NCBI RefSeq assembly: GCF_056746865.1
Contig: NZ_CM163382.1
Reading direction: 5' to 3' (one strand)
Length of the DNA: 64,000 nucleotides
The notes below the pieces were generated by a model, which saw only the letters and a program-made list of their open reading frames with translations, was not told the DNA's origin and made no database searches. This document shows, piece after piece, positions 32,120 through 34,466 of the stretch; position 1 is the stretch's first letter, and each line of letters begins with the position of its first letter. Made by a program: the position numbers and the translations under genes.

Positions 32120-32752
32120 CTATTCAGAACAGAAATCACCTTTCTCTGCCTGAACACAATTAATCAATATATCCCAGTGACCGTTCTCTAAGCGAGCTAC
32201 ACCATAATACCCAGCCAGAACCAGGGTTTTTTCTGTACAACTGATATAACCAGTGCACATTTTTACCTCGCTGGGTAAATCTGGCTGAACAACATCATCC
32301 CCGATTATTTGCCACACACCATAATCAGACGTTGCCCAGACACAATTTTCATACCATACCATTTGCCTGAACGGTAAGGTTAACTCCCCCCGATGAATCA
32401 TCTTCCATTGATCTTTTCGACCTTTAAATACAGTACCGCTTTGCGCACCGATATAAACATAGCCATCCTGACCACAACAGATAGATTCAATGAGCATGTT
32501 GCTGGGAAAATGAATTTGCCTCCATTCATCACCATCGAAATTCCAGACATCTCCTTTACCGCCTGCGGCATAGATATCATTTTCAGAGAAGCCATCCACA
32601 CAACTAAAACCAGCAGCATCCAGGAATAGCATCTGTTCACGGATTGTTTTAATTTCATCTTGCGCAGGGAGATGGATACCTTTATTTAGTTTCTCCCAAT
32701 TATTTCTATCTATCCTGCGAACAACACTACGTGCGGATCCTACAACATACAA
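32120..32752 (-). pseudogene. C-terminal part of a repeat (beta-propeller-like) family gene split by IS2
   Basis: Frame begins exactly at the IS2 target duplication; blade-like repeats (AAGGKGDVWNFDGDEW, CCGQDGYVYIGAQSGTVFKG, WATSDYGVWQI) similar to the two intact paralogs. Confidence 0.7.
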
Positions 32753-32767
32753 TCGATGGATTTGCCC

Positions 32768-33673
32768 CTATATTTCCAGACACCTGTTATCACTTAACCC
32801 ATTACTGGCCCGCTGCCGTAGATATTCCCGTGGCGAGCGATAACCCAGTGCACTATGCGGATGCCATTCGTTATAATGCTCGAACGCCTCTGCAAGGTTC
32901 TTTGCTGCCGTTAACCCGTCTGGTTTAGGCATGATACTGATGTAGTCACGCTTTATCGTTTTCACGAAGCTCTCTGCTATGCCGTTACTCTCCGGACTCC
33001 GCACCGCCGTGTTCTTCGGTTCAAGCCCCAACATCCGGGCAAACTGCCGTGTTTCATTAGCCCGGTAGCATGAACCATTATCCGTCAGCCACTCTACTGG
33101 AGACGCCGGAAGCTCGTTGCCGAAGCGGCGTTCCACCGCTCCCAGCATTACGTCCTGTACTGTTTCACTGTCGAAGCCGCCCGTAGTGACTGCCCAGTGC
33201 AGTGCCTCACGGTCACAGCAGTCCAGCGCGAACGTGACTCGCAGTTTTTCTCCGTTATCACAGCGGAACTCGAACCCGTCAGAGCACCATCGTTGATTGC
33301 TTTCTTTCACGGCCACTTTGCCAGTATGTGCCCGTTTCGATGGCGGTACAGCGGTTTTTCGCTCAAGCAACAGCGCATTCTGGCGCATGATCCGGTAAAC
33401 ACGTTTGGCATTGATCGCAGGCATACCATCAAGTTCGGCCTGTCTGCGAAGCAGCGCCCATACCCGACGATAACCATACGTGGGCAGCTCTCCGATAACA
33501 TGGTGTATACGGAGAAGCACATCCGTATCATCTGAGTGACGGCTGCGGCGACCATCTTTCCAGTCATCGGTTCGTCTGAGAATGACGTGCAACTGCGCAC
33601 GCGACACCCGGAGACAACGGCTGACTAAGCTTACTCCCCATCCCCGGGCAATAAGGGCGCGTGCGCTATCCAC
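32768..33673 (-). CDS. insD: IS2 OrfB / InsD (301 aa), DDE transposase
   Basis: 301-aa ORF overlapping insC in the -1 frame, as in IS2. Confidence 0.9.
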
Positions 33674-33996
33674 TTTTTTGCACGCCCGTATTCAACGGCT
33701 TCTTTAAGGAGTTCATTTTCCATCGTTTTTTTGCCGAGCAGGCGCTGGAGTTCTTTAATCTGCTTCATGGCAGCAGCAAGTTCAGAGGCAGGAACGACCT
33801 GCTCTCCTGCGGCCACAGCAGTAAGACTTCCCTCCTGGTATTGCTTGCGCCAGAGAAATAACTGGCTGGCTGCCACACCGTGTTGCCGGGCAACAAGGGA
33901 GACCGTCATTCCCGGTTCAAAACTCTGCTGAACAATAGCGATCTTTTCCTGTGTAGTACGCCGTCTGCGTTTCTCCGGTCCTAAGACATCAATCAT
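33631..33996 (-). CDS. insC: IS2 OrfA / InsC (121 aa)
   Basis: [57 protein letters not shown]... matches IS2 InsC. Confidence 0.9.
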
Positions 33997-34089
33997 CTGC
34001 TCTCCAATGACTAGTCTAAAAACTAGTATTAAGACTATCACTTATTTAAGTGATATTGGTTGTCTGGAGATTCAGGGGGCCAGTCTAAT

Positions 34090-34466
34090 CGACCACCAAT
34101 AGTCCGGGTATTGCTAATGGCAAATTCATATGGGATCGGTTCTTCAAGCCCTTCAAAACCACTACCTATAGCAAAAACCTCATTTTCCATTGTAACGCCC
34201 ACGTACTGACTGAATGGAATACTGGTTGTAGCCGAAAATATCTTGTCCATTCCTTCATAACCGCTGTATCCCCATTGCTCTCCTAATGGTTCATCAAAAA
34301 AAAAGGAAACAAAATTTTTTCTTGCCAGATGTTCTTCCATTACAGGGTCTATATCATCTCGCTTTTCTCGTGTAGTTATATAAATATAACCAGTGTCTCT
34401 TACTGCAACACCATTAATATAAAACCCTTTGAATATTTCATTGTACTCATCTTGAGTAATAATCAT
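34090..34466 (-). pseudogene. N-terminal part of the IS2-split repeat-family gene
   Basis: Starts MIITQDEYNEIFKGFY..., similar to the paralog N-termini (MIISQERWDKTFKNF..., MIIDIESYQKYLKGFY...); the frame runs into IS2. Confidence 0.7.

Follow-up and report, generated by a model that had tools for sequence, protein, structure and literature searches.

In the 64,000-nucleotide stretch of contig NZ_CM163382.1 (NCBI RefSeq assembly GCF_056746865.1) that was analysed, hereafter the window, a minus-strand gene of 336 codons is split by a complete IS2 element. The insertion has very probably inactivated an orphan immunity gene of the Tox-GHH2 (Tse7–Tsi7) type, situated in an island of effector and immunity debris. 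In the proposed mechanism, an active IS2 copy would have transposed into codon 127/128 of the gene, duplicating the sequence ATCGA. The target product would have been a cytoplasmic seven-bladed β-propeller, the immunity partner of a type VI secretion system (T6SS) effector that combines a PAAR-like (DUF4150) domain with a Tox-GHH2 HNH/EndoVII DNase domain. This effector would have lost its toxin domain earlier, through an internal deletion in this E. coli lineage, leaving the gene orphan, and the insertion would have left a 127-residue N-terminal stub with 15 IS residues added to it and a 3′ part without start signals. The coordinates of the features are collected in Table 1.

Table 1. Positions of the split gene, the inserted element and the neighbouring features in the window.
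Feature	Position	Strand	Remarks
PRK06147/thiolase-like T6SS accessory gene, C-terminal fragment (103-aa ORF)	31716..32027	−	precedes the effector in intact clusters
Split gene, 3′ fragment	32120..32756	−	from the second base of codon 128 through codon 336 and the stop
Target-site duplication, left copy (ATCGA)	32752..32756	.	abuts IS2
Complete IS2 (IS3 family)	32757..34087	−	1331 bp; IRL end 34087, IRR end 32757
IS2 orfB	to 32768	−	intact; stop at 32768
IS2 A6G −1 frameshift (slippery) site	33679–33673	−	IS2 position 409
IS2 orfA	33996 to 33631	−	intact; ATG at 33996
Target-site duplication, right copy (ATCGA)	34088..34092	.	abuts IS2
Split gene, 5′ fragment	34088..34466	−	codons 1–127 and first base of codon 128
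Putative cognate effector remnant (“PAAR-like” ORF, 104 aa)	34498..34812	−	toxin domain absent
Family member A (346 aa)	34866..35906	−	putative orphan immunity gene
Family member B (346 aa)	36018..37058	−	immediately 3′ of the Tox-GHH2 toxin-tip fragment
Tox-GHH2 (HNH/EndoVII nuclease) C-terminal toxin fragment	37084..37383	−	PF15635, 8.8e-08

The element is IS2 by all defining features tested. It starts at 32757 with TGGATTTGCCCC and stops at 34087 with GGGGGCCAGTCTA, the other end reading as TAGACTGGCCCC, and its terminal inverted repeats (41 and 42 bp) are imperfect, with matches in 31 of 42 aligned columns. The orfA and orfB frames overlap and are joined via a −1 frameshift at the A6G motif; their products match the NCBIfam models for TnpA (NF006928, 275.8 bits against a cut-off of 229, E = 4e-83) and TnpB (NF006918, 707.8 bits against a cut-off of 597, E = 1e-213). 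This is the only copy of IS2 in the window, and its genes are read in the same orientation as the gene that it splits. A 5-bp target duplication is typical for IS2, and here ATCGA is present on both sides of the element, but only once at the empty site in other strains. The earlier note had given the same boundaries for the element and identical ATCGA flanks, and both were recovered exactly, the duplication being perfect. Compared with other cases of gene inactivation by IS2 in E. coli, the length, ends, orfA/orfB arrangement with its A6G site, TnpA and TnpB, and 5-bp duplication are the same, and nothing sets this insertion apart in kind, the novelty being confined to the target site. The insertion is an ordinary, textbook IS-element event.

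The uninterrupted gene was reconstructed in silico by deleting nucleotides 32757–34092, which comprise IS2 and one copy of ATCGA. The excised sequence contains a 336-codon open reading frame on the minus strand, from 34466 to 32120, with no stops and no frameshifts, and reads TIGGRLYVVGSARSVVRRIDRNNW across the joint. The protein aligns over its full length with both 346-residue neighbours, A and B, at 27–31% identity. For the reconstructed gene, dN/dS was 0.12 against the orthologue from E. whittamii and 0.06 against that from C. freundii (the latter computed on a codon alignment, since the genes differ by a one-codon indel), ratios that show it to have been, by this measure, under long-term purifying selection before IS2 inserted. 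Thus, the expectation that removal of IS2 would restore an in-frame gene of about 336 residues with the predicted joint, free of stops and frameshifts and alignable with its paralogs, was borne out on every point, as was the description of the event as a clean insertion into an otherwise intact gene. The term “third paralog” holds at the level of the family, but not in the sense of a recent duplicate. In addition to the low identity, the third member and the pair A and B are orthologous to different C. freundii genes (Cf_imm1, at 76–81%, versus Cf_imm3, at 68–72%), so that the third member is, on these identities, a separate specificity and not a recent copy of A or B. The diverged variants each match a different C. 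freundii immunity gene, and these genes adjoin different effectors. Tandem arrays of the family were also seen in Ralstonia, Citrobacter and Salmonella loci.

A comparison of A with B shows a mosaic: nucleotides 1–540 are ≈60% identical and nucleotides ≈570–1041 are ≈98% identical, the last differing residue being 214. This pattern suggests that the two putative immunity genes have undergone gene conversion or recombination with each other.

The earlier note had proposed a search for the uninterrupted allele in other strains. Using the 3′ fragment as the query, the gene was found in 153 of 5,426 complete E. coli genomes. All but two of these carriers contain the reconstructed 1045 nt in one piece, at 99.8–100% identity, and the reconstruction is 100% identical to annotated intact coding sequences of 336 codons, such as WP_000587531.1 from strain 118UI, in which a 1011-nt CDS occupies the same place; agreement of this kind greatly exceeds what chance would give. 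The intact allele is annotated as a “hypothetical” or “beta propeller repeat” protein. In each of the two remaining carriers the gene has been hit independently by another IS element, which could mean that it is dispensable in E. coli. (In MSB1_7C, the inserted element is an IS5 at about mid-gene; in SW070912, it belongs to the IS3 family and sits close to the 5′ end, at about codon 10.) A probe spanning the junction between the gene and IS2 was covered in none of the 5,426 genomes.

The empty site is seen in strain 3347558, a sister strain (as is CB6886), in which window positions 32756 and 34093 are adjacent, as nucleotides 1370022 and 1370023 of the record. The left flank (window 32100–32756) corresponds to 1369366–1370022, and the right flank (window 34093–58000) to 1370023–1393930, a single piece of 23.9 kb at 100.0% identity. 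Because the flanking sequence matches perfectly over ≈24 kb next to an empty site, the insertion is, judged from this comparison, very recent and private to the source lineage; it postdates practically every point mutation in the region. The suggestion that the inactivation was probably recent is in accord with these data, the gene parts showing no differences from the intact allele.

We considered the possibility that the split is an artefact of the source assembly, in which an IS2 repeat had been collapsed or misplaced. Most E. coli carry several copies of IS2, the sequence of which is present in 4,414 of the 5,426 genomes, and the junction is shared with no other genome searched, both of which would be consistent with an assembly error. 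However, both junctions coincide with the exact termini of IS2, and the duplication is perfect and is found as a single copy in the empty site, a signature that a misassembly would not create. We consider this explanation extremely improbable and have rejected it on the grounds of the duplication and the exact termini.

The reconstructed protein had no match in Pfam or NCBIfam, including the curated repeat families (WD40, Kelch and Tectonin); members A and B reached 14 bits with Tectonin, against a cut-off of 30. Searches of the PDB with the single sequence and with a profile returned no solved relative, giving weak scores to the designer propellers “Cake” and “Pizza” only. An AlphaFold2 model, made from an alignment of 59 sequences, had a pLDDT of 93.8 and a pTM of 0.91, and is all-β, with 28 strands in seven groups of four. 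The best PDB matches to this model by Foldseek were seven-bladed propellers (among them virginiamycin B lyase, RACK1 and further WD40 proteins), with TM scores of ≈0.6. The product of the split gene is thus predicted to be a seven-bladed β-propeller. Homologues are spread over the Beta- and Gammaproteobacteria, all without a name; a second protein search with the family profile gave 73 matches, compared to 70 before, with no entry from Pseudomonas aeruginosa.

In the model, the break after codon 127 falls inside the second strand of blade 3. As it stands, the 5′ fragment forms a 142-residue ORF (34466 to 34038), made up of 127 native and 15 IS2-encoded residues. Loss of the putative immunity function is the expected consequence of the insertion, and since only fragments lie downstream of the split gene, polarity is irrelevant. 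Conceivably, part of the function could be retained if read-through from the IS2 transposase genes allowed the C-terminal 210 residues to be made, starting with the TTG at 32752: IS2 and the split gene are co-oriented, and this in-frame TTG lies 15 nt downstream of the orfB stop. Against this, the 3′ part lacks a native start, the listed TTG start being a mechanical call produced by the gene/IS2 junction, and the fragment would lack blades 1 and 2 and part of blade 3 of what is modeled as a closed seven-bladed propeller. We regard a functional 3′ fragment as very improbable, and have set it aside because of the truncated propeller.

The assignment of an immunity role comes from gene order. In Ralstonia solanacearum, Citrobacter freundii and Salmonella enterica, a homologue is located directly 3′ of, and co-directional with, an effector consisting of Tox-PAAR-like and Tox-GHH2 domains, in clusters with the order vgrG, DUF6484, DUF2169, a thiolase-like gene of ≈340 aa, effector, homologue and, often, a HEAT-repeat gene. 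The C. freundii locus contains four successive pairs of an effector and a ≈340-residue protein; the three downstream genes that were tested all match the family members of the window. A scan of genomes for homologues, from which 80 loci were kept (P. aeruginosa was not among these), included 71 from other species. In 40 of these 71, the ORF immediately preceding the homologue matched Tox-GHH2 (PF15635), and no other family recurred among the upstream ORFs of these loci except Tox-PAAR-like (8 loci). The E. whittamii orthologue, which has 97% protein identity, is likewise preceded by a Tox-GHH2 tip, at 70–636 of our locus L013. The homologues in Snodgrassella and Orbaceae are solitary, with no toxin nearby; such copies fit orphan immunity genes, but would also fit another role.

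In C. freundii CP040698.1 (7405–19011, our locus L006), short C-terminal pieces of the thiolase-like gene lie between the four PAAR-like/Tox-GHH2 effector and ≈340-aa pairs, effector 1 occupying 7405–8985. This arrangement suggests that cassettes were stacked through recombination within conserved 3′ accessory-gene and 5′ effector sequences.

The layout of these clusters is that published for the vgrG1b locus of P. aeruginosa, where the immunity protein Tsi7 is encoded after its partner Tse7, a DNase with DUF4150 and Tox-GHH2 domains (PMC11872809, PMC11883445, PMC9846239); a Foldseek alignment to Tsi7 over residues 2–340 has been reported (PMC11872809). The order of vgrG, OB-fold/DUF6484, DUF2169, thiolase-like gene, effector, immunity gene and HEAT-repeat gene is the same as for Tse7–Tsi7 (PA0099–PA0100), and the size of the family proteins (≈330–346 aa) agrees with this alignment, the likeness being one of gene order and size. 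There are also differences: at 506–538 aa, the enterobacterial effectors are longer than Tse7 (315 aa), and in the window the effector has been destroyed, leaving orphan immunity genes outside any T6SS cluster. Because of the synteny with Tox-GHH2 effectors and the published layout of the vgrG1b locus, we read the family as the probable immunity partner of Tox-GHH2 type VI effectors. By analogy with the usual mode of action of effector–immunity pairs, we infer that the family protein neutralises the DNase by binding it. The polymorphic-toxin catalogue of 2012 listed no immunity family for Tox-GHH2, and remarked that no β-propeller had turned up among immunity proteins (PMC3482391); the propeller family would fill this slot, although Tsi7 has since been characterised experimentally. 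The dual-immunity system Tde5/Tdi5 was also considered, and was set aside since the effector is different and the text mentions neither Tox-GHH2 nor propellers (PMC13392607).

The remnant of the cognate effector was found next to the split gene, in the 104-residue “PAAR-like” ORF. Its residues 1–91 (34812 to 34541) are those of a Tox-PAAR-like/Tox-GHH2 effector and are 88–90% identical to C. freundii effectors. At the deletion junction, 34540/34541, they run in the wrong frame into the final ≈18 codons of the toxin gene, so that the tail of the effector, KGMGGKQSRPYSYSSKNK followed by the stop, persists in another frame; the whole toxin domain is missing. Homology between E. whittamii and the window begins exactly at the 34540/34541 joint. 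A search with the DNA of the C. freundii effector gave short matches to the conserved PAAR-like part only, in 13 E. coli genomes, and no DNA similar to the cognate toxin domain was present in complete E. coli genomes. The split gene is an orphan because its own effector has already lost the toxin domain, and it was already an orphan immunity gene, in the sense of the gene-order assignment above, before IS2 arrived.

It could also be that the orphan gene was functionless and unexpressed before IS2 inserted, in which case the insertion cost the cell no working function and was neutral, one more event in the island's decay. The deletion of the cognate toxin in the window and the lack of similar toxin DNA in any complete E. 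coli genome would be consistent with such baggage, as would a neighbourhood crowded with fragments and IS elements and the occurrence of three independent IS insertions (IS2, IS5 and IS3-family) among the ≈154 carriers, including the window. However, the low dN/dS values indicate that the gene had been maintained by selection over a long period, the full-length ORF is kept in 151 of 153 carriers, and orphan immunity genes are generally thought to be protective, guarding the cell against attackers that are not kin. We therefore consider it unlikely that the gene had no function. A further-reaching proposal, which we make tentatively as a possible but doubtful one, is that the propellers constitute a distinct, unnamed immunity family dedicated to Tox-GHH2, and that the three genes form an orphan shield of E. 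coli against other Enterobacteriaceae, eroded by repeated IS insertions. Were this shield real, the window would record the erosion of a cross-genus protection against T6SS attack (in three strains, by one IS2, one IS5 and one IS3-family insertion), and the family would occupy the empty Tox-GHH2 position in the catalogue.

Returning to the reading of the split gene as an inactivated immunity gene, we infer that the strain with the IS2 allele is sensitive to attackers that carry the matching toxin. If the immunity role is correct, this sensitivity would be specific to one toxin variant, that of the Citrobacter Cf_eff1 and E. whittamii type, and the allele would be a natural knockout for use in competition experiments. 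The insertion can also be used to trace the lineage of this strain. For annotation, the three genes near cusS that are listed as “hypothetical” or “beta-propeller repeat” become putative orphan immunity genes against Tox-GHH2 DNase effectors, and the neighbouring “PAAR-like” and “HNH toxin-2” mini-ORFs become effector remnants.

The three family members stand in a row in a debris island between nfrB and cusS. Starting from cusS and following the minus strand, the order is: the Tox-GHH2 tip, B, A, the 104-residue PAAR-like ORF, the third member with its IS2, the C-terminal piece of PRK06147, a 45-bp scrap of a fourth member, and ISEc1 elements with an Rhs/deaminase/SUKH-3 module. The Tox-GHH2 tip is 71% identical to residues 420–507 of C. 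freundii effectors 3 and 4. The PRK06147 piece is 85% identical to residues 268–336 of the C. freundii thiolase-like gene, a type of gene that has been proposed to encode a T6SS adaptor (PMC7714669). The island shares with orphan immunity arrays (the graveyards of Rhs, CDI and T6SS systems) the tandem toxin tips and immunity genes, the pieces of conserved 5′ effector and 3′ accessory-gene sequence at the joints, and the nearby H-repeat/ISEc1, Rhs YD fragment, YwqJ-deaminase tip and SUKH-3 gene. It is a typical decaying graveyard of orphan toxin and immunity genes.

Several smaller remnants were seen in the same region. Just downstream of member B, at 35946–35964, the first codons of the PAAR-like effector (ATGGAAACTAACGTTTATA) recur, in a stretch of ≈72 nt that is nearly identical to the one downstream of member A; this recurrence suggests that an effector between B and A was deleted as well. 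The 45-bp scrap of the fourth member (FPTNMFLYSVCCQG, 31621–31665) abuts the ISEc1 boundary and matches, at 100% identity, a portion of a full-length E. whittamii gene (L057:1952–1996). The adjacent transposase gene of ISEc1 (ISAs1-family, H-repeat; 30340–31476) has an internal stop that divides it into ORFs of 156 and 218 aa; the same defect is annotated in MSB1_7C and SW070912, and the gene is intact in 118UI. Between two ISEc1 copies, at 29404–30355, lies an Rhs-type module made up of a YD-repeat fragment, a YwqJ-like deaminase tip (with a sub-threshold Pfam match) and a SUKH-3 immunity gene.
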